From assembly GCA_963705085.1 (NCBI GenBank), contig CAVPIV010000001.1:22443-86442 (forward strand): a DNA stretch of 64,000 nt, given 5' to 3'. A model generated the notes under the pieces. It searched no databases, was not told the origin of the DNA, and saw only the letters and a program-made list of their open reading frames with translations. Of the stretch, positions 2,761 to 64,000 are shown one piece after another. Source of the DNA: an uncultured Thermoleophilia bacterium. Its GTDB lineage: Bacteria; Actinomycetota; Thermoleophilia; UBA2241. Every line of letters begins with the position of its first letter. The stretch's first letter is position 1. Both the position numbers and the translations under genes were made by a program.

Positions 2761-4009
2761 TCAGTCCCGCAGCAACCGCCCGAAGTAGTCCAGGTAGGCC
2801 GTCGCTCCCCGCTGGAGGGCGTCGGGCTCGAGGATGAGGCTCGCCGTGAAGAACGCCTCGCGTTCCATGTCGAAGAAGTACCCGGGCTGGCTCCAGAGGC
2901 CCTCCTCCCGCAGAAGCCCGAGGGCCAACTCCTCTTCGGACTGGAGCCGCGGCGACTCGATGATCGCCGTCCAGCCGCCGTGGCAGGTGAGTACGCGATG
3001 GGGCGAGTCGTCTTCCTCCAGGATGAGGCGGAGCCGGGCGATGTTCTCTCTCAGCCTCCGCCGGCAACGCTCCGCGAAGTCTGTCGCTGAGGGCAGCAGC
3101 GTGGGCAGGGCGTTCATGATGGGCGTCCCCGCCGAGAGATAGGCGTCGGCGATGATCTCGAGCCGGTCTTCGGCTTCACGGAGTTCACGCTCCGGGCCCG
3201 ACGAGACGATCCAGCCGAGCTTCATCTGCGGCAGCCCGAGGCGCTTTGAGAGCCCGTCGAGGGCGAAGCAGAGGGTTCGGCCTTCGCCGATGAAGGAGCG
3301 ACGCACCGGCGATCGGCCGCCGGCGGCCGGTGGCGCTTCGCCGAGCTCGACCGGGAAGTCGTAGAAGACCTCGTCGGCGATGATGCGCGCAGCCGTACCG
3401 GACGCAGAGATCGACGAGGGCCTCGCGCTCTGCGTCACCCACGTATGAGCCTGTCGGGTTGCCGGGATTGATGACGACGAGGGCGCGGGCTCGTCCCCGT
3501 GTCAGCGCCGCTTCGACGGAATCGAGATCGATACGCCAGCCGGCGGGATGAGCGTACGCCAGGCGATACGGGCGCGTCTCCACCCCTTCGAGGCCCGCGA
3601 GATACTCGAAGAGCGGGTAGCCGGGACTGGGCGCGACGATCGCCTCGCCCGGGTCGCAGAGCAGCTTGAAGAGCCAGCCATAGGCCTCGGAGGTCGACGC
3701 GCAGAGAAACACGTCGCGGGCGTCGACCGGCGACGCGTGACGTGGTTCTCGGCTCGCGCGAACGGCGCAGTCCTCGACGATCGCGTCCCTGGCGCGCCGC
3801 AGGCCCCGCGGGTCGGGCTCGTAGCGCACGTTCGCCGGGTCGGCGAGCAGGCTGAGCGCATGCTGCGCGGGGCCGAGTCCTACCAGCGTCGGGTTGCTCT
3901 CGGAGAAGTCGAGCACGGGGACGCCGCCGGCCCGCAGGTCCGCGCGCAGCTTCGCCAGGGCGTTGTCCGCCGCGGGCCAGGTCAGCCTGGCGGAGAAGGG
4001 GATGCGCAT
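2761..4009 (-). pseudogene. Class I/II PLP-dependent aminotransferase (AlaC-like), reading frame broken by a +/-1 shift near 3400-3430. Either a sequencing indel or a true frameshift.
   Basis: N part (ORF 3185-4009): MRIPFSARL...SESNPT...NPGNPTGSYV...REALVDLCVRYG. C part (ORF 2761-3438) resumes in another frame at ...ARIIADEVFYDF...CFALDGLSKRLGLPQMKLGWI (SxSK / PLP-Lys region). Confidence 0.6.
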
Positions 4010-6167: not shown

Positions 6168-7378
6168 GCGATGCTGACTCTCGAGGCGATCGCCATTGCG
6201 CTGCCAGGCGTCCCGGCCCCGGCGAACCGTCGGAGCGACGCTTGACCGCATGCGCCCGGACATCAACGGCCGCCGAGGTCGTGCGCGGCGACCTGGAGCA
6301 CATCGCGCTCGCCCTGGGCGACGCCCGGGAGTCGCTGGCCGGGCGCCGCGTGCTCATCACGGGGGGCGCCGGGTTCCTCGGCTACTACCTGGTGCAGTCG
6401 TTGCTCCACCTCAACGAGCGCCCGGCCAGGAGTGGTCCGCCCATCTCCGTGACCGTCTGGGACAACTTCGTCCGAGGAGTACCGGCATGGCTGGAGAGGA
6501 CGGCCGCGTCACCGCAGATGACCGTCTTGAAGCACGACGCGACCAGCCCTCTGCCGACAGGCATGCCCGAGTTCGACTACATCGTGCACGCCGCCTCCAT
6601 TGCCTCGCCGACCTACTACCGGCGGCACCCCCTGGAGACCATGGACGCGAACGTCGATGGGCTGCGGCGGCTCCTGGATCACGCGCGCGGGCGCCAGGAA
6701 GCGGGGGCGCCGCTACTCGGCTTCCTCTTCTTCTCGACGAGCGAGATCTACGGCGACCCCGGCCCCGAGCACATACCGACCCCCGAGACGTACCGGGGCT
6801 ACGTCTCGTGCACGGGCCCGAGGGCGTGCTACGACGAGTCCAAGCGCTACGGCGAGACGCTGTGCGCGACGTTCGCGCATCAGTTCGGCGTGCCGGTCAG
6901 CATGGCGCGCCCGTTCAACAACTACGGCCCCGGCCTCAAGATCACGGACGGCCGCGTCATCCCCGACTTCGCCCGCGACATCCTCGCGGGGCGCGACATC
7001 GTCATGCATTCCGACGGCTCGCCGGCGCGCACGTTCTGTTACGTGGCCGATGCCGTTGCCGGCTACTACCGCATCCTCACACGGGGGCGCCCGGGCGAGC
7101 CGTACAACATCGGCACGTCCGGCCCCGAGATCACTGTCGCCGAGCTCGCAGATGCCATGGTCGGGATTGGCCGCGAGCTGTTCGGCTACCAGGGCAGCGT
7201 CGTCGTGCGGCCGAGTCGGGACGGTGCGTACCTCACCGACAACCCGGCGCGCCGCTGCCCCGACATCACGAAGGCGCGCACCGAGCTCGGCTACGAGCCC
7301 TCGGTGGAGTTTCGTGAGGGCTTGCGGCGGACGCTCATTTGGTACTCGGCCAATCAGAACGAAGGGGATGAGGCGTGA
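6161..7378 (+). CDS. NAD-dependent epimerase/dehydratase, UDP-glucuronate decarboxylase (UXS)-like SDR. Start may be GTG 6161 (coupled to the rfbF stop) or GTG about 6276.
   Basis: [37 protein letters not shown]...[10 protein letters not shown]...DGRVIPDF are UXS/ArnA-like extended-SDR motifs; its stop overlaps the next gene's start (GTGA). Confidence 0.85.
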
Positions 7379-8714
7379 GACTGTCTGTCGTGGGCACTGG
7401 CTATGTTGGACTCGTGACGGGCGCCTGCCTCGCGGAGAAGGGCCACACGGTGATCTGCGTCGACCTCGACCCCGCGAAGGTGGACGCTCATCAACGCCGG
7501 GCGTGCCACCCATCCACGAGGAGGGTCTGGCCGGTATCCTCGAACGCACGGTGCCCGACAGGCTGAGGGCGACGACCGACCTGGCGGAAGCTGTGTCGAG
7601 CACGGACATCACGTTGATCGCCGTGGGCACGCCGTTCGACGGGGAGCAGATCGATCTCGCCGCGCTCCGGCAGGCGACCACGGCCATCGGAGACGTCCTG
7701 CGGGGCAAGCCGGACTACCACGTGGTCGTGGTGAAGAGCACCGTCGTGCCCGGGACCACCGACCAGGTCGTTGTTCCGCTGCTCGAAGAGAGATCCGGCA
7801 GGGCCGCCGGCGAGGAGTTCGGCGTGGGCATGAACCCGGAGTTCCTGCGCGAAGGGCAGGCGGTCGCAGACTTCATGAATCCCGACCGCATCGTGCTCGG
7901 CGCCGACGACCCCCGGGTCCTCGATGCCTGCTCGGAGTTGTACGCGGCGTTTCCCTCGGCGTCCGTCGTCCACACCACGACGCGCACCGCCGAGATGATC
8001 AAGTACACGTCGAATGCCCTGCTCGCGTCCCTCATCTCATTCTCAAACGACATCGCCAACCTCTGCAGCGCAGTGGGCGGCGTCGACGCTTGCGACGTCA
8101 TGGCCGGCGTCAAGCTCGACCGCCGGCTCAGTCCCATGGCGGGGGATGGCTCACGTATCAGCCCCGGGGTGCTCGACTACCTTGACCCCGGTTGTGGCTT
8201 CGGCGGCAGCTGCTTCCCCAAGGACGTCCAGGCGCTGACGGCGTTCGCGGAGAGGCGAGGCTCGCCGCTCCGGCTCCTCGAGCAGGTCCTCGCCGTCAAC
8301 GACGCGCAGCCCTTCAAGATGATCGACTTGCTGCGGCGACACTTCGACACGCTCCTCGGCGTGCGGGTCGCTGTGCTCGGGCTCGCCTTCAAGCCGGACA
8401 CCGACGACCTGCGCAGCTCTCCGGCGCTGCCCATCGTGGACCACTTGCTGCACGCCGGCGCCGTCGTCAAGGCGTATGACCCTATCGTGCGGGATGAGGA
8501 TATCGCCCGGCTGGAGTGGGCAGAGGTCACGCGGTGCACTACTCTCTCGGACGCGGTCGCGGACGCCGACGCCGTACTCCTTGTGACACGCTGGGGCGAG
8601 TTCGCGACGCTGCCTGATCTGCTCCGCCAGCTCGCAGTCGAGCCCCTGATCGTCGACGGCCGGCGTATGCTCGCCGCCGATTCGGTGGCCCGCTACGAAG
8701 GGATCGGACGATGA
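7375..8714 (+). CDS. NDP-sugar dehydrogenase (UDP-glucose/GDP-mannose dehydrogenase family); frame disrupted about 7480-7520
   Basis: ORF 7375-7566 gives the Rossmann N-terminus [38 protein letters not shown]. The rest continues in another frame: [12 protein letters not shown]...[13 protein letters not shown]...NPEFLREG...[11 protein letters not shown]...[17 protein letters not shown] is visible in the third frame, suggesting two nearby indels. Confidence 0.7.
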
Positions 8715-11415: not shown

Positions 11416-12360
11416 ATGAGCCTCGACGCTACTGATTCGGTGATCGCGGTCGACGGTCTCCGCAAGACCTACGGGCCGACGGTGGCTGTGGACGGCATCA
11501 GCTTCGAGGTGGGACGGGGAGAGATCTTCGGGCTGCTCGGCTCGAACGGCGCCGGCAAGACGACCACGGTTGAGTGCCTGGAGGGGTTGCGTCGGCCCAG
11601 CGGCGGCACGGTGCGGCTGCTCGGCTCCGATCCGGTAGCGGAGCGCGACCACCTGAGGGGCCGCGTCGGCTGCCAGCTGCAGGAATCCCATCTCCCGGAC
11701 CGCATGCGCGTGTGGGAGTCGCTTGACCTGTTCGCAGCGGCTGGGCCCGGGGCTGTGGATTGGGAGCCTCTGCTGGACGCCTGGGGGTTGGCCGGCAAGC
11801 GCGATGCTCCCTTCGGGAGCCTCTCGGGCGGCCAGCGACAACGGCTTCTGGTAGCTCTCGCCCTGGTGACCGATCCGGACGTCGTCTTTCTCGATGAGAT
11901 GACGACCGGGCTGGATCCCGCTGCGCGGCATGCGAGCTGGGAACTCATCGACGCGATCCGCCGGCGTGGCACGACCGTCGTACTGGTCACTCACTTCATG
12001 GACGAGGCCGAGCGGCTGTGCGATCGGGTGGCCGTGATGGATGCGGGCCGCATCGTCGCCCTCGGCAAACCGCAAGCCTTGATCGAAGCTCGTCTCGGCT
12101 CTGTCAGGGTGCGCTTCACGGCGGAAGGGCTCGCGGAGTCTGCCACGGCACCGGAGGATCTGGGCTGGCTCGAGGGGGTGCGTCACGTGCGGTCAGTGGA
12201 GCGCCGCGGTGATGTGGTCGAAGTCACCGGCGAGGGTCCGGTCCTTCTGCACGTCGCCGCCGCGCTGCTCGAGCGCGGGCTGGAACCGGCCGACTTGAGG
12301 GTCGACCGGCCGACGCTCGAGGATACCTTCCTCAAGCTGACCGGCCATGGGCTGGAGTGA
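11416..12360 (+). CDS. ABC transporter ATP-binding protein (ABC-2 exporter type)
   Basis: Walker A GSNGAGKTT, signature LSGGQRQRL, Walker B VVFLDE. Confidence 0.9.
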   Translation: MSLDATDSVIAVDGLRKTYGPTVAVDGISFEVGRGEIFGLLGSNGAGKTTTVECLEGLRRPSGGTVRLLGSDPVAERDHLRGRVGCQLQESHLPDRMRVWESLDLFAAAGPGAVDWEPLLDAWGLAGKRDAPFGSLSGGQRQRLLVALALVTDPDVVFLDEMTTGLDPAARHASWELIDAIRRRGTTVVLVTHFMDEAERLCDRVAVMDAGRIVALGKPQALIEARLGSVRVRFTAEGLAESATAPEDLGWLEGVRHVRSVERRGDVVEVTGEGPVLLHVAAALLERGLEPADLRVDRPTLEDTFLKLTGHGLE

Positions 12361-12363
12361 CGG

Positions 12364-13125
12364 ATGAGGCTCTGGCGCAAGCTCGTGTGGGAGGAGCTCA
12401 AGCTGTTCGTGCGCGAACCGCTGACGGTGGTCTTCGCGCTGGGCTTCCCGCTGGTCATGCTGTTCGTGCTCGCCGAGGTCTTCGGCTCGACGCCGGCGAC
12501 GCCCGAGCCGGGGGAGCAACCCGTCTTTCGCGGCGTCTCGCCGATGAGCTACTACGTGCCCGCCTACATCGCCCTGGCCGCGGCTGCCGTCGGCCTGGTG
12601 ATGGTCCCGGCCCACCTGGCGGCCTATCGCGAACGGGGCGTCTTGCGGCGCTTCCGGGCGGCGTTCATTCCGGGCTCGACGGTGTACAGCGCGCAGGTCG
12701 CCGTGCAGTACGTGCTGTCCACGGCCGGCGCTGTTCTCATCGCGGGCGCCGCCTCCGCCGCCTACGAACTCCCCGCGCCGGCCGACTACGCCGGCGTGGT
12801 CGTGGGCTTCCTCGTCACCGTGGCGGCCTTCGCGGCCATCGGTATCCTGCTGGGCGCCGTCATGCCGTCGCCGCGTGCCGCGCAGGGCTTCGGCGTCATG
12901 CTGTTCTTCGTGATGATGATGGTCTGTGGCGGCGGACCCCCGGTCGACGTCATGACGCCGACGATGCAGACCGTCGGCAAGGCCCTGCCGCTGTGGCACG
13001 GCATCGTGGCCATCCAGGACGCATGGCTCGGGTTCGGGTGGAGCTGGAGCGCGCTGGCGGTCACGGCGGGCTTCGCGGTGGTCGCCGGTGCGCTCGCGAT
13101 CCTCGCGTTCAGGCGCGTGGGCTAG
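12364..13125 (+). CDS. ABC-2 family transporter permease
   Basis: Six-TM hydrophobic profile, directly downstream of the ATPase. Confidence 0.85.
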   Translation: MRLWRKLVWEELKLFVREPLTVVFALGFPLVMLFVLAEVFGSTPATPEPGEQPVFRGVSPMSYYVPAYIALAAAAVGLVMVPAHLAAYRERGVLRRFRAAFIPGSTVYSAQVAVQYVLSTAGAVLIAGAASAAYELPAPADYAGVVVGFLVTVAAFAAIGILLGAVMPSPRAAQGFGVMLFFVMMMVCGGGPPVDVMTPTMQTVGKALPLWHGIVAIQDAWLGFGWSWSALAVTAGFAVVAGALAILAFRRVG

Positions 13126-50642: not shown

Positions 50643-50785
50643 GCCGCTCCCTTCCGTGGCTGCTCCTGAGCGCGAGAGCCGCTGGTTCTCGCGCTGAAAG
50701 GAGGAGTGAGTGTACACCGTGCGCGGCGAGGTGAATAGGTCTGCCCCGCTCCGGTATCCCCGGAGAGCCGGCGAGAGGCCATCTT

Positions 50786-51523
50786 GTGGACCCGTCGCGG
50801 GCCGTGTACCGTGCCGTCGTGCCCCGTCTCCTCGCCCAGCACGAGCACCCGTGGCGGGTGTCGCTCGCGGATGCCGCCGCGACCCAGACGCGCCTTGCCG
50901 CCGAGGTGCGCCTGCGGCCTGTGCCGGCGGCAGGCCCAGGGTCTCCGCGGCTCGCGGCCGGTGTCGACGCCGCCTACACGAAGGACCGCGCCCACGCCTG
51001 GGCGGGGGCGGTCGTCATGGACTCGCGCTTCAGAGCGGTGTCGTCCGTCGTCGTGGAGGGCGAGCCAGATCTCGAGTATGCGCCCGGCTACCTCGCGTTC
51101 CGTGAGGGGCGGCTCGCCGTGGAGGCTCTCTGCGCTTTGGACGTCGATCCCGACGTGGTCTTCCTCGACGGCCACGGCGTGGTTCATGCTCGGGGCTGCG
51201 GTCTCGCCTCGCACATCGGCGTGCTCCTCGGGCTGCCGACGATCGGGGCGCCCAAGGCGCCGTTCCACGCCATTGATCATCAGCCGGGTCCGCGGCGCGG
51301 CGACTACTACATCCTCAGCAAGGAGTGGGGCGCCCAAGGCGCGTCGCTCCGGCTGAAGGCCGGCGTCAAGCCTGTCTACGTCTCACCGGGCAACCTGGTC
51401 GATCTCGAGAGCGCGATTGCGCTCGCTCTCGCATGGTCCAGCGGGCGCCGGCGCGTGCCGGAGCCGTTGGCGGCCGCTCACACGCTGTCAGTGCGGGCCC
51501 GCAGTCGCGCCCTGGGCCTCTGA
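50786..51523 (+). CDS. nfi: Endonuclease V
   Basis: AGVDAAYT...GYLAFREG...VVFLDGHGVVHARGCGLASHIGVLLGLPTIGAPK; GAGAGG SD before GTG. Confidence 0.85.
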   Translation: MDPSRAVYRAVVPRLLAQHEHPWRVSLADAAATQTRLAAEVRLRPVPAAGPGSPRLAAGVDAAYTKDRAHAWAGAVVMDSRFRAVSSVVVEGEPDLEYAPGYLAFREGRLAVEALCALDVDPDVVFLDGHGVVHARGCGLASHIGVLLGLPTIGAPKAPFHAIDHQPGPRRGDYYILSKEWGAQGASLRLKAGVKPVYVSPGNLVDLESAIALALAWSSGRRRVPEPLAAAHTLSVRARSRALGL

Positions 51524-51538
51524 GCGGACGGAGGGGCG

Positions 51539-52864
51539 TCACACGGCCGCCGACGCGTTCCCCAGTCTCACGAGAACCAGGGCCTCTGCGAGGATGCAGC
51601 GCTCGAGCTCGGTGAGCGATACGCTCTCATCGGAGGAGTGGATTCGGCAGCCGGGTTCCTCGGCGCCGAACAGGACGATCTCCGCCTTGGGCACCGCGTC
51701 GTGGAAGGCCGCCACCAGTGGCACCGAGCCGCCCTGGCCCACGTGGACCACCTCCGCGCCGAAGGCGTCCCGGAGGGCGGTCGTGACGATGGCGCCCGCT
51801 CGTCCGGTCTCGCCGGCGAGGAAGCCGTCGCCGAGCACGCCGTCGCGCACGGTGAGCTTCACGTGCCACGGCGCGACCGCCTCGAGGTGGCGTCGCAGGG
51901 TCTCCCGGGCGCGCCCGGGATCGCGCCCGGGAGGTACCCGGACGCTGACCTTTGCCCGGACCTGCGCCACAACCGCGTTGGGCGCGCCGTCGACCGGTGG
52001 CGCGTCGAGCCCAGTGACCGTGACGGCGGGGCGCGTCCAGAGGCGCTCACTCAGACGGCCTCGGCCGACGAGGTCAACGCCGTCAAGCACGCCGGCATCG
52101 GCGCGGAACTCGTCCTCGGGGTAGTCGGCGCCCGCCCAGGCGACCGCCTCGAGGCCTGGAACCGCGACATCGCCCCTGTCGTCGACGAGGGTGGCGAGCA
52201 TCTTCGCCATGGCGAGCAGGGCGTCCGGGGCGGCGCCCCCGAAGGAGCCGCTGTGGACCGGCGCTCGCAGCGTCTCGACGTCGACCTCGACGGCCGCGAA
52301 GCCGCGCAGGGACGTCGTCAACGTTGGCAACCCGAGCCTGGCGTTGCCAACGTCCGCCACGACGATCAGGTCGGCGGCCACGGTCTCCGGGGTTCGCCTC
52401 ACCCACGTCTCGAGGGTACCGAGGCCCGCCTCCTCCTCACCCTCGATCAGGACCTTGACGCCGATCTCCAGCTCGTCGCCTGCGGCACGAAGGGCGTTCA
52501 CGTGCAGCACGACGCCGGACTTGTCGTCGGCGGCGCCCCGGCCGTAGAGGCGCCCGTCGCGCAGCGTCGGCGAGAAGGCCGGCGACGTCCAGCCGTTCTC
52601 GTCGCCGGGCGGCTGGACGTCGTAGTGGGCGTAGAGCAGGACGGTCAGCTGCCCCGGCGGTGCAGGGCGGTGAGCGAGGACGGCGGGTGGCCCGCCGGGG
52701 ATGTCGAGCAGTCGAACGTCAGGCAGGCCGCAGGCGCTAAGCTGGTCGGCGACGGCCCGCGCCGCCTGCTGGACCGGCTCGCTGGGATACCCGGGGAAGG
52801 CGATCGACGGGATCCGTACGAGCTCTGCGAGCTCGGACTGCGCCTGCGGCATGAGCGCCTGCAC
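51539..52864 (-). CDS. M20 family peptidase (ArgE/DapE/dipeptidase-like)
   Basis: [13 protein letters not shown]...[11 protein letters not shown]...IEGEEEAGL motifs. Confidence 0.85.
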
Positions 52865-52878
52865 ACGCGTGCGCAGGT

Positions 52879-53485
52879 GTCATCGTGGCCACGCAGATGC
52901 TCGAGTCGATGATCGAGCACCCGGTCCCGACGCGCGCCGAGGTGTCGGATGTCGCCGGGGCGGTGAACGACGGGGCGGACGCCGTGATGCTCTCGGGCGA
53001 GACGGCCGTCGGGGCCTTTGCCGTCGAGGCGGTCCGGACGATGGACGAGATCGCGCGGGTGGCCGAGGCGCAGAGGCCGATGCCGGTCGAAGCCTCCTCA
53101 CCGGATCTCCGACGGGGAAGACCACACGCCGGTCGTCTGCGACATGGCCGTCGTCGCGGCGCGGCGCGCGGGGGCGCAGGCGATGGTCGTCTACACGGCG
53201 TCGGGCCGGACGGCGCGCCTTCTCTCGAAGGAGGATTCCCGGATTCCGATCGTGGCGATCACGAACTCCGAGGAGGTTCGGCGACGGCTCACCCTCCTCC
53301 GGAACGTCGTCTCGTACTGCATTCCGGCGTCCTCGTCGGTCGAAGGGATGATCGCGAGCGGGGACGCCGTCCTTCGGGCGCACGGCCTCGCCGAGGCGAC
53401 GGTCGTCGAGGTCTCGGGCGCCGCGGCCATCGAAGGGGCGACGAACACCGTGACGGATCCGGACGCTCAAGCCCGCTCGCAAGTG
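52879..53485 (+). pseudogene. Pyruvate kinase fragment: 5'-truncated (begins mid-barrel at ...[15 protein letters not shown]...) with an internal frameshift about 53090-53110, then the C-terminal regulatory domain
   Basis: [42 protein letters not shown] (PK active-site region) appears with no upstream PK sequence; a TGA lies in-frame 25 nt upstream. The C-domain ([15 protein letters not shown]...[10 protein letters not shown]) is in another frame. Confidence 0.7.
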
Positions 53486-54356
53486 ATGCCGTTCGGCGGA
53501 GCCGACCTCCACTTCCACTCGACCTTCTCGGACGGCGTCGAGTCGCCCGCAGAGCTGGTCCTGCGCGCCGTGGCGGCCGGCCTTTCCGTCGCCGCCCTGA
53601 CCGATCACGACGCCGTCCACGGCGTACCGGCGTTCGTGCAGGCGGCGGCGGGGACGGGGCTCGTCGCCGCCGGGGGCGCCGAACTCTCGGTCGACGACGG
53701 GGGAGAGGACGTCCACCTCCTGGGGCTGTTCCTCGACCCGGAGGAGCCCGACCTGATCGAACGGCTCACCTGGTTCCGCCAGGTGCGGGACCAGCGCGGC
53801 GAGGCGATCGTCGAGAAGCTCGCGCAGCTCGGGGTGACGCTCGACCTCGCGGCGCTCCGGGCGGAGGTCGGCGCCGGCGCCTTCGGGCGCCCGCACGTGG
53901 CGCGCGCCCTCGTCGCGAAGGGGGTCGTTCAGAGCGTCGGGGAGGCCTTCGACCGGTACCTCGGTGACGGCGGCCCGGCGTTCGTCCCGAAGGCGAAATG
54001 GGGACTCTGCCGAGGCGATCGGGGCGGTCCGCCGGGCCGGGGGCCTCGCGGTCCTCGCCCACCCGGTCTGGTATCGCGATCCGGGCGAGCTCCTCCGGAG
54101 GGGGCGTGACCTCGGTCTCGACGGAGTCGAGGTCTTCCATCCCGACAACGACGGACGCGAGGAGGAGTTCGGCGCGGAGGCCGAGGCGCTCGGCCTCCTC
54201 GTGACGGCGGGCTCCGATTTCCACTCTGCCGCCGACGGGGGGCTGACCCTCGGCGCACGTCGGCTCGACGAGCCGCTCTGGGAGAGGGTCGCCGAGGCGG
54301 CGACGGCGCGTCGGCGCGACGCGGGCCGTCCGGCGCTCGACCTCTCTCCTCGCTGA
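53486..54356 (+). CDS. PHP-domain phosphoesterase; frame disrupted about 53990-54010
   Basis: [17 protein letters not shown]...TDHD...[18 protein letters not shown]... continues in another frame as [19 protein letters not shown]...EVFHPDN...AGSDFHS. Same frame as the preceding PK C-domain, so the boundary is unclear. Confidence 0.6.
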
Positions 54357-54393
54357 CCCTTCCGGCGCGAGATTGGTGTAGAACAGGCGGCCC

Positions 54394-55752
54394 ATGGCTC
54401 CCGTCGTCCCAGCCGAACTCGAGACCCTGCCCTCGCGCCCGGAGGTGGAGCGGAGCCTCCTCGGAGCGCTCCTGATCGACGGCGGTCTCCTCACGCGCGT
54501 GATGGAGCACGTCGTTCCGGAGGACTTCGCCTCCGAGCCGCACCGTCTCGTCTACGAGGCGTGCCTCGCCCTCTCCGACCGGAAGGAAGCGGTCGACCTC
54601 GTGATGGTCGAGTCCGAGCTCGAGCGGAACGGGCGGCTCGCGAGGGCCGGCGGGACGGCCTACCTCGCGGGCCTTCTCGACAACGTTCCCGACGTCGAGA
54701 GCGTCGACAGCTACGCGCGGCTCGTCCGCGAGGCCGCGCTGCGCCGCCAGCTGATCCTCCAGTCGCGCCGCGCTGCGCGCGCCGCGGTCGACGCCCCCGA
54801 CGCGCAGGCCGTCCTCGAGGTCGCCCAGCAGGAGCTCGTCGACATCGCCAAGGGGAGCCTGAGGGGCGGGTTCGTGCGCCTCTCCCAGATCGCGGAGAAG
54901 AACGAGGAGGAGATCCAGAAGATCCAGGCGCGCGGCTCGATGCTGACGGGCCTGCCGACGGGCTTCTCGCGCCTCAACGCCCTGACCCAGGGCCTGCAGA
55001 AGACCGACCTCATCGTCCTGGCCGCCCGGCCCGGGATGGGGAAGACGGCGTTCGCGCTCAACATCGCCTCGTACCTGACGATCCACAGCGGGTACTGCGT
55101 CGCCTTCTTCTCGCTCGAGATGAGCGCGCCCCAGCTCGGATTCCGCATCCAGTGCGCCGAGGCGCGCGTGAACCTCCAGCGGCTGCGCGAGGGGCGCCTG
55201 TCGAAGGAAGAGAAGAAGTTCCTCTTCTACACGACGCAGCAGATGCGCGACGCGCGCTTCTACATCGACGACCAGCCGTCGATCTCCCTCCTCGAGATGC
55301 GGGCGCGGGCCCTCCAGCTCAAGCAGGCGCAGAAGGGGCTCGACGCGATCTTCGTCGACTACCTCCAGATCATGGGCTCGCGGCAGAAGTACGAGAACCG
55401 GACGCAGGAGGTCGGCGCCTACTCGCGCGGGCTGAAGGCGCTCGCCAAGGAGCTCGACGTCCCCGTCATCGCCCTCGCGCAGCTCTCGCGACGCACGGAG
55501 CAGCGGGGGTCGGAGAAGGAGCCGCAGCTCTCGGACCTGCGCGAGTCGGGCGCCATCGAGCAGGACGCCGATCTCGTCATCTTCCTCTCGAGGCCCGAGT
55601 ACTACGACAAGGACACGCCGGACAAGAACGTCTGCGAGGTCATCATCGCCAAGCAGAGGAACGGTCCCACGGGACGCTTCTCCGTCGGGTGGTCGGGCGA
55701 GACGACCCGCTTCTCCGACCTCGCCCAGGTGCCCGAAGGCGCCGGGATGTGA
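54394..55752 (+). CDS. dnaB: Replicative DNA helicase
   Basis: Full-length DnaB (GPTGTGKTAFALNIA-type Walker A ARPGMGKTAF, IFVDYLQIM, ALAQLSRRTEQR, QRNGPTG). Intact. Confidence 0.9.
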   Translation: MAPVVPAELETLPSRPEVERSLLGALLIDGGLLTRVMEHVVPEDFASEPHRLVYEACLALSDRKEAVDLVMVESELERNGRLARAGGTAYLAGLLDNVPDVESVDSYARLVREAALRRQLILQSRRAARAAVDAPDAQAVLEVAQQELVDIAKGSLRGGFVRLSQIAEKNEEEIQKIQARGSMLTGLPTGFSRLNALTQGLQKTDLIVLAARPGMGKTAFALNIASYLTIHSGYCVAFFSLEMSAPQLGFRIQCAEARVNLQRLREGRLSKEEKKFLFYTTQQMRDARFYIDDQPSISLLEMRARALQLKQAQKGLDAIFVDYLQIMGSRQKYENRTQEVGAYSRGLKALAKELDVPVIALAQLSRRTEQRGSEKEPQLSDLRESGAIEQDADLVIFLSRPEYYDKDTPDKNVCEVIIAKQRNGPTGRFSVGWSGETTRFSDLAQVPEGAGM

Positions 55753-55839
55753 ACGGGCGGATCGCGCCGGGTATCATCGGCCGCAGAGAGCCTCTCTTGA
55801 CCCGAACGCTTCCCGACGCACCTTTCGACAGGAGGTCCG

Positions 55840-56609
55840 ATGGGCTTCCTTGAACCCGTCGGCAGGCTCGCCCTCGACGCCCTCGAGTTCCACGGCCGCT
55901 GCATCTCGCTCCTCGGCCTGACGGTGCGGGGCCTCTTCCGGAAGCCCTTCGACGGCCGGGCCCTCGCCACGCAGGTCGTTCGGGTCGGCTTCGACGGGCT
56001 CCCGGTCGTCCTCCTGACGGCCGTCTTCACCGGGGCGGTCCTGGCTCTCCAGACCTACGTCGGGTTCAAGCGCTTCCACGCGGAGGCGTGGGTCGGCTCC
56101 GTCGTCGCGCTCTCCATGCTCCGCGAGCTGGCGCCGGTCCTGACGGGCCTGATGGTCACCGGCAGGTCGGGGAGCGCGATGGCCGCCGAGATCGGCTCGA
56201 TGCGCGTGACGGAGCAGATCGACGCCCTGGTCTCCCTGGCGACCGACCCGGTCCAGTACCTCTTCGTCCCGAGGATCCTGGCGGGGATCATCGTCGTCCC
56301 GATGCTCGTCGTCCTCGCGAACGCTCTCGGGATCACCGGCGGCTACCTCGTCGCGGTGCGCCTGCTCGGCGCGAACCCGGTCGTCTACGTCCAGAACACG
56401 TTCCAGTTCCTCGCACCTGAACGACCTCTGGTCGGGCCTCGTCAAGGCGGCGCGTCTTCGGCTTCCTCCTGACGCTCATCGGCTGCCAGCAGGGCTTCGA
56501 CACGACGAACGGAGCGGAAGGGGTGGGCCGCGCGACGACGGCGGCCGTCGTCCTCGGGTCGCTCGCCATCCTCGTCTCCGACTTCTTCCTGACGAAGGTG
56601 CTCTTCTGA
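55840..56609 (+). CDS. mlaE: MlaE-type ABC permease; two +1 frame disruptions near the 3' end (about 56425 and 56455)
   Basis: ORF 55840-56472 then NDLWSGLVKAA and FGFLLTLIGCQQGFDTTNGAEGVGRATTAAVVLGSLAILVSDFFLTKVLF* in shifted frames. Confidence 0.7.
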
Positions 56610-56619
56610 GCGCGGCCGC

Positions 56620-57417
56620 TCCGGGCCCGGTCCCGCGAGGCCCCGCCCGAGATCCGGCTGACGGCGCCTCTCGAAGCGCTTCGGCCCGAAGGTCGTCCTC
56701 GACGGGCTCGACCTGGCCATCGCGAAGGGGGAGTCGATCGTCATCCTCGGCAAGTCGGGGACGGGGAAGAGCGTCCTGCTCAAACACATGATCGGGCTCC
56801 TGACGCCCGACGCCGGGGCAGTGGAGGTCGAGGGCGAAGACCTGTGGAGCGCATCCCGCTCCCGCCGCGACGAGATCCGCCGCCGCTTCGGGATGTCGTT
56901 CCAGGAGGGGGCTCTCTTCGACTCGATGAGCGTCGGCGAGAACATCGCGTTCCCGCTGAAGCGGCACACGAAGATGACCCCGGACGAGGTGAGGGCGCGC
57001 GTGGCCGAGTGCCTCTCCCTCGTGAAGCTCCGCGGAATCGAGGGGAAGCGCCCCTCGGAGCTCTCGGGCGGCATGCGGCGGCGCGTCGGCTTCGCGCGGG
57101 CCATCGCGCTGAAGCCGGAGGTGCTCCTCTTCGACGAGCCGACGACCGGGCTCGACCCGATCACGACGGACGTCCTCGCCCGCGTGATGATCGACCTGAG
57201 GGACCGGATGAACCCGACGATGGTGACGATCACCCACGACCTGAAGGTCGCGTTCGAGGTCGCCGAGCGTGTCGCTCTCCTCGACCGCGGGAAGATCCTC
57301 GTCGACCTCCCGCCGAGGGAGTTCGAGGCGTCGGACGACCCGCGCGTGAGGGCGTTCGTCCAGGGTGACGGGAGCGAGGACGCGGAGTCCGGGGCTCCCG
57401 AGGAGGCAACTGTATGA
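56620..57417 (+). CDS. mlaF: MlaF-type ABC ATP-binding protein; 5' region frame-disrupted (about 56660), start codon not identifiable
   Basis: ...SKRFGPKVVLDGLDLAIAKGESIVILGKSGTGKSVLLKHMIGLL... (Walker A), LSGGMRRRV, LLFDEPTTGLDP; upstream PEIRLT is in a different frame. Confidence 0.65.
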
Positions 57418-58270
57418 ACGCGACGGCCAAGATCGGCCTTTTCGCCCTGGCGGTCCTGCTCGCGCTCGCCGTCCTCGTCCTCAAGATCGAGGACCTGCCG
57501 TTTCCCGGAAAGGCGCGTGCGGCCTCGGCGGAGGTCACCTTCACCGACGTGGCCGGGCTCGACGACAAGTCGACGGTGCGGATCGCCGGCGTGAGGGTCG
57601 GCAAGGTCGACGGCGATCCGCCTCCTTCCGGACGGCACGGCGGTGGCGCGGCTCGTCTTCGACGGCGACGTCGAGCTGCGCGACGGGGCCTGGGGCCAGG
57701 TGAAGAACCTCGGCCTGCTCGGCGACAAGTACGTCGACCTCTTCGCGGGGGACCCGATGAAGCCCCGCCTGCCCGAAGGGGCCCGCATCCCCGGGCGGGT
57801 TCCCGTGCGAGTTCGACGAGCTGACGAAGCTCGCGAGCGACATCGGCAAGGACGTCAAGGAGCTGACCAGCGCCCTTTCGGGTTCCATGGGAGGCGAAAC
57901 GGGGGAGGCGAAGATCAACCGGATCGTCGACAACGTCGGCGCCCTCGCCGAGCAGCTGAAGAACCTCGTCGAGTCGAACCGGCAGAACGTCGACGTCACG
58001 ATGGCGAACCTGCGCGAGTTCTCCTCGTCGATCCGCGAGACGCTCGCCCGCCTCGACCGGATCCTCGACGAGAACCGGTCGGGGGTGAAGGGGTCCGTCG
58101 CGAACATCGAGGACCTGTCGGGGAAGCTGAAGATCTCCGCCGACAACCTGAACTCGATCACGGGCAAGCTCGACAGCGGACAGGGGACGATGGGCAAGCT
58201 CCTGAACGACGAGACGACCCACGAGAACCTGAACGAGGCGCTCACGTCGATCAAGACGGGCGTCGAGTAG
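57414..58270 (+). CDS. mlaD: MlaD/Mce-domain protein; two frame disruptions (about 57610 and 57800)
   Basis: Signal anchor plus STVRIAGVRVGKVD in frame 1; LPDGTAVARLVFDGDVELRDGAWGQVKNLGLLGDKYVDLF in frame 2; FDELTKLASDIGKDVKEL...TSIKTGVE* in frame 3. ATGA overlap with mlaF. Confidence 0.65.
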
Positions 58271-58272
58271 CT

Positions 58273-58856
58273 GAACACGACGCTGACCCGGATCAACCAT
58301 ATCGAGCTCGACCTCGGCTTCTACGGCGAGTACGCGACGCGGACCGAAGGGTGGAAGGGCGTGGCCCGGATCGACGTGACGCCGCGCGAGGGCAAGTTCT
58401 ACCGCTTCGAGGCGATCGGCCTTCAGGACGGACGGCGCTTCGACGAGACGTACCAGTACGAGACGAGCATCGACGGCGGGCCGCCGACCGTCGTGACGAC
58501 GACGGTCACGCGGACCGAGGACGAGTTCGCCTTCTCGGCCCAGCTCGGCTACCGTTTCAAGGACACGATGCTCCGGGCGGGGCTGATCGAATCGCGCGGG
58601 GGCGTCGCGATCGACCAGCTCCTCCTGAAGGACCGGCTTCAGCTCTCCGCCGAGGCGTGGGACTTCGGCCGGCCCGATGGGCAATGCGCAGGTGAAGCTC
58701 TTCGGGCAGTGGCAGTCCCGGGGCGCGGTCTTCGTCCGCAGCGGCGTCACCGACATCATCAACCCCGCGGGGCGCTCGTTCTTCTTCGGTGCGGGGATCC
58801 GCTGGAAGGACGAGGACATCAAGATGCTCCTCCCGGCTGCCGCCGGCGCCTTCTAG
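58273..58856 (+). CDS. Hypothetical protein (possible outer-membrane-associated, ends in Phe), contiguous in frame with mlaD after an in-frame TAG; one internal frameshift (about 58690); no obvious start codon
   Basis: ...IELDLGFYGEYATRTEGWKGVARIDVTPREGKFYRFEAIGLQDGRRFDETYQYETSIDGG...AEAWDFGRPDG then shift to NAQVKLFGQWQSRGAVFVRSGVTDIINPAGRSFFFGAGIRWKDEDIKMLLPAAAGAF*. Confidence 0.4.
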
Positions 58857-58859
58857 CTG

Positions 58860-60260
58860 ATGGCCAGGCGGCCGGGTCGCGTCTTCACCTGCACGGCGTG
58901 CGACGCGCAGAGCCCGCGCTGGCTCGGGCGCTGCCCCGAGTGCGGCGGCTGGAACACCTTCGTCGAGGGAGAGCCGGAGCGGCCCGCCCGCCCCGGAGAG
59001 CGCGCGCCCGCCGCGACCCGTTCGCCGATCCTCCGGATGCAGGACGTCGACGCGACGGATTCGCCGCGCCTCCTGACGGGGCTCGCCGACGTCGACCGGG
59101 TCCTCGGGGGAGGGCTCGTTCCCGGCTCCGTCGTCCTCCTCGGCGGGGAGCCCGGCATCGGCAAGTCGACGCTGCTCCTGCAGGTCGCGGCGCGGCTCGT
59201 CGCGCACGCGGGCCAGGTCCTCTACGTCTCGGCGGAGGAGTCGGCGCGGCAGGTGCGGCTCCGGGCCGACCGGCTCGGGGCCGTCGTCGACGGCCTTCAC
59301 CTCCTCGCCGAGACCTCGGTCGACCGGATCCTCGAAGCCGCCGCCGAGAGGCCCTGGACGGCGCTCGTCGTCGACTCGATCCAGACGGTCGCCTCGCCCG
59401 ACCTCCCCTCGACGCCCGGCTCGGTCTCGCAGGTGCGGGACGCGGCGGCACGCCTCTCCGTCCACGCCAAGACGGGCGGGACGCCGGTGATCCTCGTCGG
59501 GCACGTCACGAAGGACGGGACGCTCGCCGGGCCGAAGACGCTCGAGCACCTCGTCGATGCCGTCCTCTCGTTCGAAGGGGAGCGGTTCCAGGCGCACCGC
59601 GTGCTGAGGGCGTTGAAGAACCGCTTCGGGCCGGTCCACGAGCTCGGCGTCTTCGAGATGACCGGCACCGGCCTCGTCGAGGTGACGAACCCCTCGGCCC
59701 TCTACCTCGGCGGACGGACCGGCGGCCGGCCCGGCTCGGCGATCCTCGCGGCCGTCGAGGGGACGCGTCCGCTCCTCCTCGAGGTGCAGGCGCTGACGGT
59801 CCCGGTGAAGTACGGAACGCCGCGGCGTACCGCCATCGGCTTCGACGGGACGCGCCTCGCGCTCCTCCTCGCGGTCCTCGAGCGGCACGGCGGGCTCGCG
59901 CTCTCGGGCCACGACGTCTTCCTGAACATCGCGGGCGGCGCCGAGAGCGAGGAGCCGGCGGCCGATCTCGCCGTCCTCGCCGCCGTGGCGGGGAGCGTCC
60001 GGGAGACGGCGCTGCCGAAGGGGGCCGTCGCCTTCGGCGAGGTCGGGCTTCTCGGAGAGGTGCGCGCCGTGACGGACGCGACGCTCCGGCTCAAGGAGGC
60101 GGTCAGCCTCGGCTTCACGGAGGCGTTCCTTCCCGCCGGGAACGCCGCGGAGGCGGCGGAGTTCCCGGATCTCGCGGTGACCCCCGTCGCGAGCGTCGAG
60201 GAGCTCCTCGCGCGGACCGCGGCGCCCGTCAGACCGGCAGGACCGGGTCGGCGCCCGTGA
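58860..60260 (+). CDS. radA: DNA repair protein RadA/Sms
   Basis: C4 zinc ribbon (CTAC...CPEC), Walker [15 protein letters not shown], Lon-like C-domain. Intact. Confidence 0.9.
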
Positions 60261-61136
60261 GAACGCGGAACGCCTCGACGTAGCGGGCGAGCGTCCCGGC
60301 GACGACGTCGGCGGGGAGGACCGGCGCCGGAGGGCGTCTTGTCCCAGCCGGTCGTCTCGAGCCAGTCCCTCACGAACTGCTTGTCGAAGGAGGGCGGAGA
60401 GCCCCCCTCGTGCCACGACGGCGCGGGCCAGAAGCGGGAGGAATCGGGGGTGAGCGCTTCGTCGATCCAGACGACGGAGCCGTCGCCGTCGAGGCCGAAC
60501 TCGAACTTCGTGTCGGCGACGATCACGCCCCGCGAGGCGGCGTACGCGGCCGCCTCGGAGTAGATCGCGAGCGTGAGGTCGCGCAGGCGCGCCGCGAGGT
60601 CGTGCCCGATCGCGCTGGCCATCGTCTCGAACGAGACGTTCTCGTCGTGCCCCGACTCCGCCTTCGTGGCGGGCGTGAAGATCGGCTCGGGAAGACGTCG
60701 ACGCTTCCAGGAGGCCGGCGGGAAGCGGAACGCCGCAGACGGCGCCGGTCTTCCGGTAGTCCTTCCAGCCGGAGCCCGCGAGGTAGCCGCGGGCGACGCA
60801 CTCGAACGGGACGACCCGGCACTTCTTCACCAGGACGGAGCGTCCTGCGAGGACTCCCGCGTGCGACGCGAGCTCGCCGGGGAAGGCGGCCGCGTCGGTC
60901 TCGACGAGGTGGTTCGGCACGAGCGTGCCGAACTTCCGGAACCAGAAGGTCGAGAGCTGGGTCAGGACCGCGCCCTTGCCGGGGATGCCCGGAGACAGGA
61001 CGACGTCGAAGGCGGAGATCCGGTCGGTGGCGACGACGAGGAGCCGGTCGCCGAGGTCGTAGACGTCGCGGACCTTCCCCCGGCGGGGAGGCGGAAGGCC
61101 AGGCAGGGAGGTGGCTTCGAGGGCGGCAGGCGGCAT
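60239..61136 (-). CDS. purC: Phosphoribosylaminoimidazole-succinocarboxamide synthase; two frame disruptions (about 60700 and 60330)
   Basis: [25 protein letters not shown]...[27 protein letters not shown], then [27 protein letters not shown]...[11 protein letters not shown], then ...[18 protein letters not shown] in three frames; 3' end overlaps radA convergently. Confidence 0.7.
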
Positions 61137-61197
61137 GGCCGGATTCTATTCGGGCTCGGCTAGACTCCCCGGACCGCACGTTACCGAGGAGTCACGC

Positions 61198-62714
61198 TTG
61201 AAGCTCGAGATCGTTTCCCCCGCCGAGAAGAAGAAGGGCGCCCGCCGCGACGCCGTCGTCGCCTTCGTCGCCCGGCCCGAGAAGAAGGAGCCCGCCCGCT
61301 TCGAGACCGTTCCCGACGAGCTCCGTGAGGCGGCCCGTGCGGGTGCGCCTCCCGAAGCCGGCAACGACGGATCGGTCTGGACGGTCCCGCTCGGCGCGGA
61401 CGGCCCTGCGAGCCGCCTCTATGTCTTCGGCACCGGCACGGGCGAGGAGATGGCCCCGCGCAAGGCGCGAGGCCTGCTGCGCGCGGCGGTCCGCACCCTC
61501 GAGAAGAACGGCGAGACGTTCCGCTCTCGTCGACTTTCCCTTCACGCTCCTGAGGATGAGCCCGGCCGAGGCGCGGGACTTCGTCGCCCGCAACCTCCTC
61601 GTGGCCGGCTACGCCTTCCCTCGATTCAAGAGCGCCGGGAACGGCCCGGCGAAGCTCGTGGAGATGGCTCTCCCGGCGGGCCGTGGTGTCTTTGCCGGCG
61701 CCTCGCCGAAGGAGCTCCGGGAGGGGTGCATCGAGGCCTCGAAGGTCGCCGGGATGGCGGCGTTCGTGCGAGACCTCGGGAACACCCCGTCGAGCGACAT
61801 GGTCCCGCGGATGTTCGCCGACGCCGTGAAGGCGGCTGCGAAGAGCGCGCGGCGTGAAGGCGACGGTACTCGGGAAGAAGCAGATCGAGGCCGAGCGGAT
61901 GGGAGGCCTTCTCGCCGTCAGCCGCGGCGCGGCCGAGGAGCCCCGCTTCGTCATCCTCGAGCACCGGGGCGGAAAGAAGGGCGACAAGCCCGTCGTCCTC
62001 GTCGGCAAGGGCGTCACGTTCGACTCGGGCGGCATCTCGATCAAGCCGTCCGACAAGATGGGCGACATGAAGTGGGACATGATGGGCGCGGCCACCGCGT
62101 GCGGGGCCGTCCTCGCCGCGGCGGAGCTCGGCCTGCCGGTGAACGTGGTCGCGCTCGCCCCCCTCGCCGAGAACATGCCGTCGGGCTCCGCCTACAAGCC
62201 GGGCGACATCGTGACGTTCCGCAACGGCAAGACGGCCGAGATCGACAACACCGACGCCGAGGGGCGCGTCGTCCTCGCCGACGCCCTCGACTACGCGAAG
62301 GAGTTCTCGCCCTCCGTCATCGTCGACTACGCCACGCTCACGGGCGCGGCCGTCGTCGCCCTCGGCCTCGAGGCGTCGGTCCTCTTCACCGACCACGAGG
62401 ACCTCGCCGCCGCGCTGATCTCCGCGGGAGAGCGGACCGACGAGCGGCTCTGGCGCCTCCCGCTCTGGGACGACTACAAGGAGAACATCCGGTCCGACTG
62501 GGCCGACTTCAAGAACACCGGCGGCCGGTACGGCGGCTCCATCAACGGTGCGATCTTCCTGAAGGAGTTCGTCGACCCGAAGACCCCGTGGGCCCACGTG
62601 GACATCGCCCCGACGGCCTACTTCGAGCGCGAGCACGCCGGCTACGCGACGGGCGCGACGGCGATCGGCCTCGCGATGACGCTCCGCTGGCTGAAGGACC
62701 GCGCCTCCCGGTAA
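61198..62714 (+). CDS. pepA: Leucyl aminopeptidase (M17); two frame disruptions (about 61530 and 61850); TTG start after GAGGAG
   Basis: N-domain in frame 1, middle in frame 2, catalytic domain (VVLVGKGVTFDSGGISIK...NTDAEGRVVLADAL...TLTGAAVVALG) in frame 3. Confidence 0.7.
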
Positions 62715-62718
62715 GGCC

Positions 62719-64000
62719 GTGCTCTGCACCCTCCGCGTCCGGGACCTCGCCGTCCTCGAGGACGTCGACGTCGCGCTCGACACCGGCCTGACGGTCCTGA
62801 CGGGCGAGACCGGCGCGGGGAAGTCGCTCGTCGTCGACGCGCTCTCGCTCCTCTCGGGAGAGCGGTCCGACGCGACGCTCGTCCGCGGCGGGGCCGAGCG
62901 CCTCGTCGTGGAGGGGTCGTTCGAGACGGACGACCCGGCCGTCTCGGATGTCCTCGTCGCCGCGGGCCTGCGCGAGCCGGGCGCCCGCGGCCCGTCCGAG
63001 GTCGTCGTGAGGCGCGAGGTCTCCGTCGAGCGGAAAGGGGCGCCTCTTCATCGACGGCTCGCCGGCCGCGCTCCGCACGCTCGCCGAGCTGGCGCCGCGC
63101 CTCCTCGTCCTCTACGGGCAGGCGGAGGCGCGCGAGCTCCTCGACCCGGCCGCTCCGCGCGAGCTCCTCGACCGGTTCGCCGCGCTCTCGGAGAGGTCGG
63201 CGGAGGTCGAGCGGCTCCACGCGGCGTGGAAGGAAAAGGACGCGGACCGCGAGCGGATCGCCGCGCTCGGCAAGGACGGCCCCGCGCGGCTCGAGGTCCT
63301 GGAGTTCCGGATCGGCGAGATCGACCGCGCTGCGCCGGTCGCGGGCGAGGAGGAGTCCCTCGGAAGGGAGAAGACGGCGCTCTCGAGCGTCGAGAAGCGC
63401 GGCCGGCTCCTGGCGGACGCCGTCGCGGCCCTCGAATCGGACGAGGGCGGCGCCCTGCCGGCCCTGACCGCTCTCCGGCGGACCGTTCTCGCCCTCGCCG
63501 AAGTCGACCCGGACGCCGCGGGACGCCTCGCGATCGTCGACGAGCTGATCGAACGCGTCGCCGACGTCGCAGCGTCGACCTCGCGCGACCTCGAGCGGCT
63601 CGAGGCCGACCCGTCGCGGCTCGCGACCGTCGTCGAACGGCTCGACGTCCTCGCGAAGCTGAAGAGGAAGTACGGCGCGACGCCTCGAAGAGGTCCTCGC
63701 CTACAGCGAGGTCGTCGGCCGGGAGCGGGACGAGCTGGCCGACCTGGAGGGGGCGCTCCGCAAGGCGGAGAAAGCCGCTGGCGAGGCGTTCGCCGCCTAC
63801 AGGACGGCGGCGCTCGAGCTCTCCGCCGCGCGGACGGCCGCCGCGCCAAGGCTCGGGAAGGCGGTGGAGAGGCATCTCGCCGACCTCGCGTTCCTGTCCT
63901 CGGCGTTCCGCGTGGAGGTCTCGCGCAAGGGCGTTCCCGACAGCCCGTTCCTCGCGGGAGAGGAGCACGTTGCTTTCGGCCCCCATGGGGTCGACGCCGT
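62719..64000 (+). CDS. recN: DNA repair protein RecN (3' end beyond the window); at least two frame disruptions (about 63040 and 63690)
   Basis: GTG start; LTVLTGETGAGKSLVVDALSLLSGERSDATLVRGG... then ERKGRLFIDGSPAA... and ...KYGATLEEVLAYSEVVG... in shifted frames. Confidence 0.65.
   Translation, partial: MLCTLRVRDLAVLEDVDVALDTGLTVLTGETGAGKSLVVDALSLLSGERSDATLVRGGAERLVVEGSFETDDPAVSDVLVAAGLREPGARGPSEVVVRREVSVERKGAPLHRRLAGRAPHARRAGAAPPRPLRAGGGARAPRPGRSARAPRPVRRALGEVGGGRAAPRGVEGKGRGPRADRRARQGRPRAARGPGVPDRRDRPRCAGRGRGGVPRKGEDGALERREARPAPGGRRRGPRIGRGRRPAGPDRSPADRSRPRRSRPGRRGTPRDRRRADRTRRRRRSVDLARPRAARGRPVAARDRRRTARRPREAEEEVRRDASKRSSPTARSSAGSGTSWPTWRGRSARRRKPLARRSPPTGRRRSSSPPRGRPPRQGSGRRWRGISPTSRSCPRRSAWRSRARAFPTARSSRERSTLLSAPMGSTP

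Follow-up and report, generated by a model that had tools for sequence, protein, structure and literature searches.

In genome assembly, chimeric reads can stitch distinct genomes together, and misassemblies decrease with coverage; for the assembler metaFlye, serious errors in polishing have furthermore been described where strains are heterogeneous (PMC12424758). The insertions and deletions (indels) of long-read consensus sequences fragment genes, and these errors drop with coverage (PMC9262707, PMC12007338). For Nanopore data, such consensus indels have been described as a homopolymer signature (PMC9262707). Here we analyse a stretch of 64,000 nucleotides, in the following called the window, from contig CAVPIV010000001.1 of an assembly assigned to an uncultured Thermoleophilia bacterium (GCA_963705085.1). 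In this window, a pyruvate kinase (PK) gene begins in the middle of its coding sequence at position 52,879, and most of the genes that follow are interrupted by frameshifts. A preliminary description had taken this for an assembly artefact rather than biology, and we find that taxonomy, composition, gene structure, synteny, selection and the errors found left of the PK gene support this view. It is very likely that the window stems from a contig that is chimeric between two phyla and in which the consensus of the acidobacterial segment is poor.

The G+C content of the window is about 70% throughout, and the two parts differ in finer features. We segmented the window with a Viterbi algorithm that uses six coding frames and a non-coding state, where the input was G+C by codon position only. 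The state changes at 52,878/52,879, and from there up to 64,000 the coding frame shifts again and again with no stop codons in between. The last gene to the left of this point encodes an M20 dipeptidase. Its publicly called ATG start codon (52,852) lies 26 bp from the breakpoint, and its longest open reading frame (ORF) starts with a GTG at 52,864, 15 bp short of the junction, which is the distance that the preliminary description had given.

The relatives of the right part point to the Thermoanaerobaculia within the Acidobacteriota. The DnaB protein of the window is 99% identical to a JGI metagenome protein (P0001), whose cluster is named Thermoanaerobaculia/Holophagales by its sources, and the relatives of RadA and MlaE are likewise Thermoanaerobaculia/Holophagales. 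At the DNA level, we compared the window to four independent contigs, in which the gene order was read as far as each one extends: L001 (JGI, 19 kb, 92% DNA identity to the window), L084 (NCBI GCA_966191855.1, 11 kb, 93%), L002 (ENA/NCBI, ENA ERZ25039527 contig_57532, 220 kb, 86%) and L086 (JGI, 125 kb, 84%). The gene order in these relatives is GTP cyclohydrolase I (minus strand), PK (480 aa), a PHP-domain phosphoesterase, dnaB, mlaE (255 aa), mlaF, mlaD (about 480 aa), radA, purC (minus strand), pepA and recN (590 aa), and positions 52,879–64,000 of the window are collinear with all four contigs. All of these genes are whole in the four relatives, except mlaE and mlaF of L002. BLASTN homology to the four contigs opens at exactly position 52,879 in each case, corresponding to codon 279 of a PK gene of 480 codons, and no BLASTN match to L001, L002, L084 or L086 was found to the left of it. 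The four relatives contain the full PK gene with GTP cyclohydrolase I upstream, whereas the PK gene of the window is cut. The truncation within the gene had thus been recognized correctly before, and the number of missing residues is 278 instead of the roughly 300 that had been estimated.

The left part has different relatives. All named relatives of the M20 dipeptidase are Actinomycetota, and among species-representative genomes the Thermoleophilia lead with 57–59% identity. In two closer relatives (including L085), the M20 gene and a convergent endonuclease V gene are kept in the same arrangement, and the genes upstream of M20 are actinobacterial (GH76, DUF72) and not PK. The M20/PK junction is absent from the relatives of either side, so that the synteny comparison proposed in the preliminary description shows neither side continuing across the break. 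Furthermore, an independent assembly reproduces a piece of the left part: Logan contig L003 (run ERR11561443) matches positions 50,175–52,530 at 99.96% with no gaps, and this match stops 350 bp before the junction. When we used the 117-aa N-terminus of M20 as a query for a Logan fragment that would show the upstream sequence, no fragment with 100% identity was found. For six products of the right part, none of the matches listed came from Logan, which, with the left part being reproduced, fits a low depth of the right part.

The composition changes at the same point as the relatives. We calculated strand-symmetric tetranucleotide frequencies in 5.5-kb windows and measured their distance to the mean of the left part. 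This distance is 0.012–0.019 left of the junction vs 0.037–0.042 right of it. The left part has a distance of 0.014–0.018 to contigs of Thermoleophilia metagenome-assembled genomes, and is thus no farther from these than from itself, compared to 0.040–0.049 to the right part. The right part is nearest (0.022–0.027) to non-homologous stretches of Thermoanaerobaculia contigs. Codon usage shows the same switch. For leucine, the fraction of CTC rises from 0.50 on the left to 0.73 on the right, in line with the shift to CTC described before, and CTG falls from 0.39 to 0.24; for valine, GTC rises from 0.53 to 0.73. The G+C content at third codon positions (GC3) of intact genes is about 0.87 on the left and 0.94–0.97 on the right; a second comparison of GC3 gives about 0.89 vs 0.92–0.97. 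Tetranucleotides, codon usage and the Viterbi states thus all change abruptly at the breakpoint, as a chimeric contig would show, and the comparison of both profiles that had been suggested finds them switching at the junction. As taxonomy and composition both change at 52,879, the two halves belong to different phyla, with the changeover at a single point.

We next describe the frameshifts of the right part, which were located in three multiple alignments: the window with L001 and L002; the window with L084, L001 and L002 over 52,879–58,039; and the window with L086 and L002 over 58,000–64,000. Compared to two to three intact references, the right part has 16–17 window-specific one-base insertions (Table 1), and the frame switches of the Viterbi segmentation coincide with the aligned insertion sites. 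No window-specific one-base deletion was found in the three alignments. The frameshifts had been described as shifts by plus or minus one base; they are indeed single-base events, and all of them are insertions. The individual counts also change to some extent. The PK gene has two disruptions instead of one and mlaD has three to four instead of two, and the separate ORF that had been described after mlaD belongs to the MlaD-like protein (479 aa), of which it encodes the C-terminal part. Among the examples that had been given, GGC-G-ATC in mlaD (57,615) and ACG-C-CTC in recN (63,683) were recovered, and GGG-G-CGC in recN was not found. The two genes that had been called intact, dnaB and radA, are intact. 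The spacing of the insertions is compatible with random placement at a rate of about 1.5 per kb, and chance is therefore the most likely reason why dnaB and radA contain none.

Not all length differences in the alignments are errors. Coding indels among the relatives themselves comprise three or six bases (at 59,002, 60,228 and 61,698), and we rejected these three as errors because they are natural in-frame differences. We also rejected an apparent deletion of 30–89 bp in the spacer between PK and the PHP gene; this state is common to the window and L084 and is therefore natural.

Table 1. Parts, genes and one-base insertions of the window; lengths are those of the proteins, and insertions are given by their position.
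Feature	Coordinates	Strand	Remarks
Actinomycetota (Thermoleophilia-like) part	1..52878		Genes largely intact; assigned from M20 homologues, tetranucleotides, Pfam coverage and the Logan match
Class I/II aminotransferase	2761..4009	-	Left part; divided in two by one extra base at about 3,391
UDP-glucose dehydrogenase	7372..8714	+	Left part; +1 insertions at 7,489 (C) and 7,508 (A)
M20 dipeptidase	51539..52852	-	Last gene of the left part; 100% identical to P0121, 437 aa
Breakpoint (putative chimeric join)	52878..52879		Onset of homology to four contigs and Viterbi boundary
Thermoanaerobaculia (Acidobacteriota) part	52879..64000		Assigned from homology to L001, L002, L084 and L086
Pyruvate kinase, 3' fragment	52879..53486	+	Codons 279–480, aligned to intact 480-aa PK; insertions at about 53,090–92 and at 53,453
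PHP-domain phosphoesterase	53486..54356	+	Insertion at 54,008; intact orthologues have 289 aa
dnaB	54394..55752	+	Intact
mlaE	55840..56609	+	Insertions at 56,414 and 56,451–52; truncated product P0410 in the public record
mlaF	56640..57417	+	Insertion at 56,665–66 in the conserved N-terminal strand; another just upstream at 56,635–36
mlaD-like	57414..58856	+	About 479 aa; insertions at 57,615, 57,809, 58,678–79 and probably 58,855; public fragment P0439
radA	58860..60260	+	Intact
purC	60229..61136	-	Insertions at 60,327 and 60,698
pepA (M17 leucyl aminopeptidase)	61138..62714	+	Start approximate; insertions at 61,516–17 and 61,841; public C-terminal piece P0425
recN	62719..64000	+	Leaves the window at its end; insertions at 63,026–31 and 63,683

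The left part has the same type of error at a far lower density. Here, we found three insertions in two genes, all of them within the first 7.5 kb and none between 7.5 and 52.9 kb. In the aminotransferase gene, the Pfam profile is divided over two ORFs (profile positions 59–180 and 180–338), and the sequence reads VRYG-[T]-ARIIADEVFYDF. The UDP-glucose dehydrogenase gene reads KVDA-[C]-INAGRA-[A]-PIHEEGL. The remaining genes of the left part that we examined have full-length Pfam coverage. The insertion rate is thus 0.057 per kb on the left vs 1.44–1.53 per kb on the right, a difference of about 25-fold, and the right part, which makes up 17% of the window, contains 16–17 of the 19–20 insertions (binomial P ~1e-10). 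For the window as a whole, 20 insertions stand against 0 deletions (sign test P = 2e-6). Finding the same +1 error on both sides points to one error process that acts at about 25-fold different rates, and a rate difference of this size is as expected for different read depth.

Similar errors were observed in related assemblies. Compared to the window and L001, L002 contains 24 insertions of one base within 1.3 kb (11,443–12,739), together with a small number of longer ones (2–5 bases). This patch spans mlaE and mlaF, and no genes are called there. Only 2 of the 24 insertions extend a neighbouring base (P ~1e-5 to 1e-4), and 14 of the 20 insertions of G or C create a CpG. The patch is probably a local polishing failure. 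In addition, other long NCBI/ENA contigs (65–560 kb) of the same clade have a truncated pepA product (191–385 aa vs about 504) or a truncated mlaF product (198 aa; the proteins concerned are P0435, P0437, P0433 and P0285), and truncation of the frameshift type may be common among long contigs assembled from this lineage. The insertions of the left part, the L002 patch and the truncated calls elsewhere together suggest an assembly or polishing signature that varies with local data quality.

From these observations, we propose that about 52.9 kb from the genome of a Thermoleophilia-like actinobacterium were joined to at least 11.1 kb from a Thermoanaerobaculia genome. On the actinobacterial side, the join would lie 26 bp upstream of where M20 starts, and on the acidobacterial side it would fall midway through PK. 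It probably originated from a chimeric long read, or from an overlap wrongly made where a contig of low coverage ends. In the acidobacterial consensus, 16–17 spurious insertions (1.5 per kb) would then break PK, the PHP gene, mlaE, mlaF, mlaD, purC, pepA and recN. As errors of this type are also present in the actinobacterial part, at 0.06 per kb, the contrast between left and right would reflect consensus quality and not biology, most likely read depth and/or co-occurring strains, where the difference in depth is itself inferred.

Several points weigh against this explanation. First, the errors consist of insertions only and have no association with homopolymers, which is atypical of the commonly described long-read consensus errors. 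Only 5 of the 17 insertions of the right part adjoin an identical base, where a fraction of 0.44–0.51 is expected, and none of the 25 runs of at least 5 nt in the right part is affected; the observation that the insertions lie outside homopolymers had already been made in the preliminary description. Second, the count of three insertions in the left part comes from the frame segmentation and Pfam coverage and not from close relatives, and could be an underestimate. Third, the source platform, probably Nanopore with Flye and Medaka, is judged by analogy to L002 and to names in the style of the Microflora Danica project. This long-read project used Flye and one round of Medaka, and L002 and several GTDB loci bear Flye-style 'contig_N' names from it. 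In the literature and supplements for ERR11561443 and ERZ25039527, we found nothing on the sequencing platform and no tie of ERR11561443 to Microflora Danica. Fourth, the case for a chimera is drawn from assembled sequences. Lastly, the 40-mer across the junction has no match in the collections genome_contigs and metagenome_contigs, which carries little weight because the source contig itself lies outside both.

The same artefact could also have a different cause, namely polishing errors that arose from collapsed Thermoanaerobaculia strains (84–93% identity) and not simply from low depth. Several close lineages of the locus exist (L001, L084, L002 and L086), and metaFlye errors under strain heterogeneity have been reported (PMC12424758). 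The depletion of homopolymer extensions in the L002 patch looks systematic rather than like depth-limited noise, and the density of mismatches within 5 nt of the insertions in the window is slightly raised (0.10 vs 0.064). However, the insertions fall on codon phases 0, 1 and 2 in a ratio of 7/7/1 and are thus not concentrated next to third positions, and there is no mosaic of strain similarity around them. For the same two reasons, the idea that both alleles of a strain polymorphism were retained in the consensus is unsupported. The same error also occurs in the left part, for which no co-occurring relatives are known in the data examined. We therefore regard strain mixture as a possible but rather unlikely cause; it is compatible with low depth and does not exclude it.

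The remaining explanations take the junction, the frameshifts or both as real, or place the join after assembly. For these, the deposited record is informative. One deposited contig of 92,774 bp (NCBI, ENA) records M20, endonuclease V, dnaB, radA and the mlaF ORF with their exact sequences. The same contig records the frameshift-truncated mlaE (210 aa, of which the tail is out of frame), pepA (a C-terminal piece of 286 aa) and mlaD (a fragment of 127 aa); the other members listed in the mlaE cluster all have 255 aa. The products of both sides are found on one contig, and the junction and the frameshifts therefore belong to a single deposited contig. The join was thus made neither by concatenating binned contigs nor in the preparation of the window.

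It could be argued that a Thermoleophilia-like actinobacterium took up an acidobacterial block of at least 11 kb by horizontal transfer and that the foreign genes are now decaying. Both halves being on one deposited contig agrees with such a transfer, and a foreign block might start in the middle of a gene by illegitimate recombination. However, we found no integrase, insertion sequence or other mobile-element signature at the junction, and no direct or inverted repeats that bracket the join. The left flank also shares no microhomology with the stretch of PK before codon 279 in the relatives. There is no tRNA gene anywhere in the window, and no Rfam family was matched. Moreover, the block consists of ordinary syntenic core genes with 92–93% DNA identity to free-living relatives.

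Decay of the block would furthermore be expected to leave traces of relaxed selection. We removed the inserted bases and polarised the codon changes with L002 as outgroup. The lineage of the window has 64 synonymous and 26 nonsynonymous changes vs 137 and 41 in the lineage of L001 (Fisher P = 0.30). Removing the insertions restores full-length proteins, and the corrected frames contain a single in-frame stop, at the end of mlaD beside the insertion at 58,855. Protein identity to L001 is 99% for the intact dnaB and the broken mlaE alike. The frameshifted genes thus show no sign of relaxed selection in the relative-rate test, in stops or in deletions. Pseudogene decay in bacteria is deletion-biased, and 17 insertions with 0 deletions and no larger lesions are unlike it. 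The GC3 of the right part is still 0.94–0.97, and the same +1 insertions strike genes in the left part, that is, in the supposed host. Seventeen real frameshifts with no nonsynonymous excess, no deletions and no loss of GC3 would be a very odd mode of decay, and we consider a genuine transfer to be very improbable.

Equally improbable is that the join is artefactual and the frameshifts are real, such that an acidobacterial strain has recently pseudogenised a cluster of housekeeping genes. The frameshifts are present in the deposited record, and a context outside homopolymers is unusual for sequencing errors. However, a simultaneous loss of mlaEFD, purC, pepA, recN, PK and the PHP gene within 11 kb is implausible for a free-living lineage with intact relatives, and the selection analysis speaks against this scenario as well. 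The identical error type in the unrelated genome on the left and the dense patch of L002 point to a signature of the pipeline, and truncated pepA and mlaF calls occur on other long NCBI/ENA contigs of the clade.

Least credible are two further scenarios. In the first, junction and frameshifts would both be real: a Thermoleophilia-like actinobacterium would have acquired at least 11 kb of acidobacterial core genes (dnaB, radA, the mla operon, purC, pepA and recN) recently, and an unusual mutational process that causes only +1 insertions would now be inactivating them. In the second, two contigs of a contaminated bin would have been pasted together with no spacer; a contig that starts in mid-gene would mimic the truncated PK and a mix of phyla is typical of bin contamination, but products of both sides lie on the one 92,774-bp contig and the window contains no N bases.

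Beside the junction and the frameshifts, we made some observations on individual genes. In the right part, the stop codon of PK and the start codon of the PHP gene overlap as TGATG (53,484–53,488), as in L084; L001 and L002 have spacers of 29–88 bp. The stop of mlaD and the start of radA overlap as TGATG in the relatives; in the window (58,854–58,862), the A inserted at 58,855 disturbs this overlap. These arrangements indicate tight translational coupling in the right part.

A further observation concerns the start of mlaF. Gene calls give the MlaF protein of this Thermoanaerobaculia clade a length of 209 aa and a start at MIGLL, which lies past the Walker A motif (GKSGTGKS), and other MlaF members are annotated at 263–266 aa. 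In L001 (12,215–12,391, corresponding to 56,610–56,790 of the window), the mlaF frame continues further upstream without a stop, through the conserved PEIRLTGLSKRFG, and no ATG, GTG or TTG occurs from the mlaE stop to the PEIRLTGLSKRFG region. This suggests that mlaF may use a non-canonical start or may be coupled to mlaE.

In the left part, a gene similar to the formate dehydrogenase alpha subunit (47,874–50,717, minus strand) forms one frame that gene callers split into two ORFs. It contains an in-frame TGA at 49,557–49,559 in the motif SIDHCART-[TGA]-HAPTVAGL, with a GGCC/GGCC hairpin directly downstream. The TGA resembles a selenocysteine codon that is accompanied by a putative selenocysteine insertion sequence (SECIS)-like element in the actinobacterial part; none of the Rfam SECIS families reached the threshold at this gene.

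If the window is a chimera with a poor consensus on one side, neither a cluster of pseudogenes nor a transfer of genes between phyla calls for a biological explanation. The consequences then concern quality control. The deposited contig of 92,774 bp would mix two phyla, and its truncated mlaE, mlaD and pepA products are already in public protein collections. If the contig has been binned, at least 11 kb of the bin are contamination from another phylum, including the marker-type genes dnaB, radA, recN and purC, and such contamination could distort phylogenomic, metabolic and gene transfer inferences. Furthermore, the signature of insertions only and outside homopolymers, which is seen in the window and in L002, may be the fingerprint of a particular assembly or polishing pipeline.

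Lastly, we compare the window to three known systems. Pseudogene clusters in reductive evolution, e.g. in recently host-restricted bacteria, resemble the right part in that many adjacent housekeeping genes are frameshifted. Unlike such clusters, the right part shows no deletion bias and no raised nonsynonymous rate, has one stop (at the end of mlaD) and keeps its GC3. In addition, its relatives at 92–93% DNA identity are intact, and the interruptions are restricted to a single side of a breakpoint between phyla.

Gene truncation by consensus indels as detected by IDEEL-type comparisons is closer to what we observe. Both have frameshifts relative to intact orthologues, conserved coding sequence and an error density that depends on the region, and in both the truncated gene calls spread into public protein collections (PMC9262707, PMC12007338). 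The classical pattern consists of insertions and deletions in homopolymers, whereas all 20 of the 20 errors here are +1 insertions outside homopolymers.

Long-read contigs that are chimeric between genomes are the third system. The window differs from them in that no Oxford Nanopore adapter remnant was found at the join, and in that the case is known from its assembled sequence. As in such contigs, taxonomy, tetranucleotides and codon usage switch at one base, with no signature of biological integration; the break lies within a conserved gene, and the synteny of both parents is lost at this very point.

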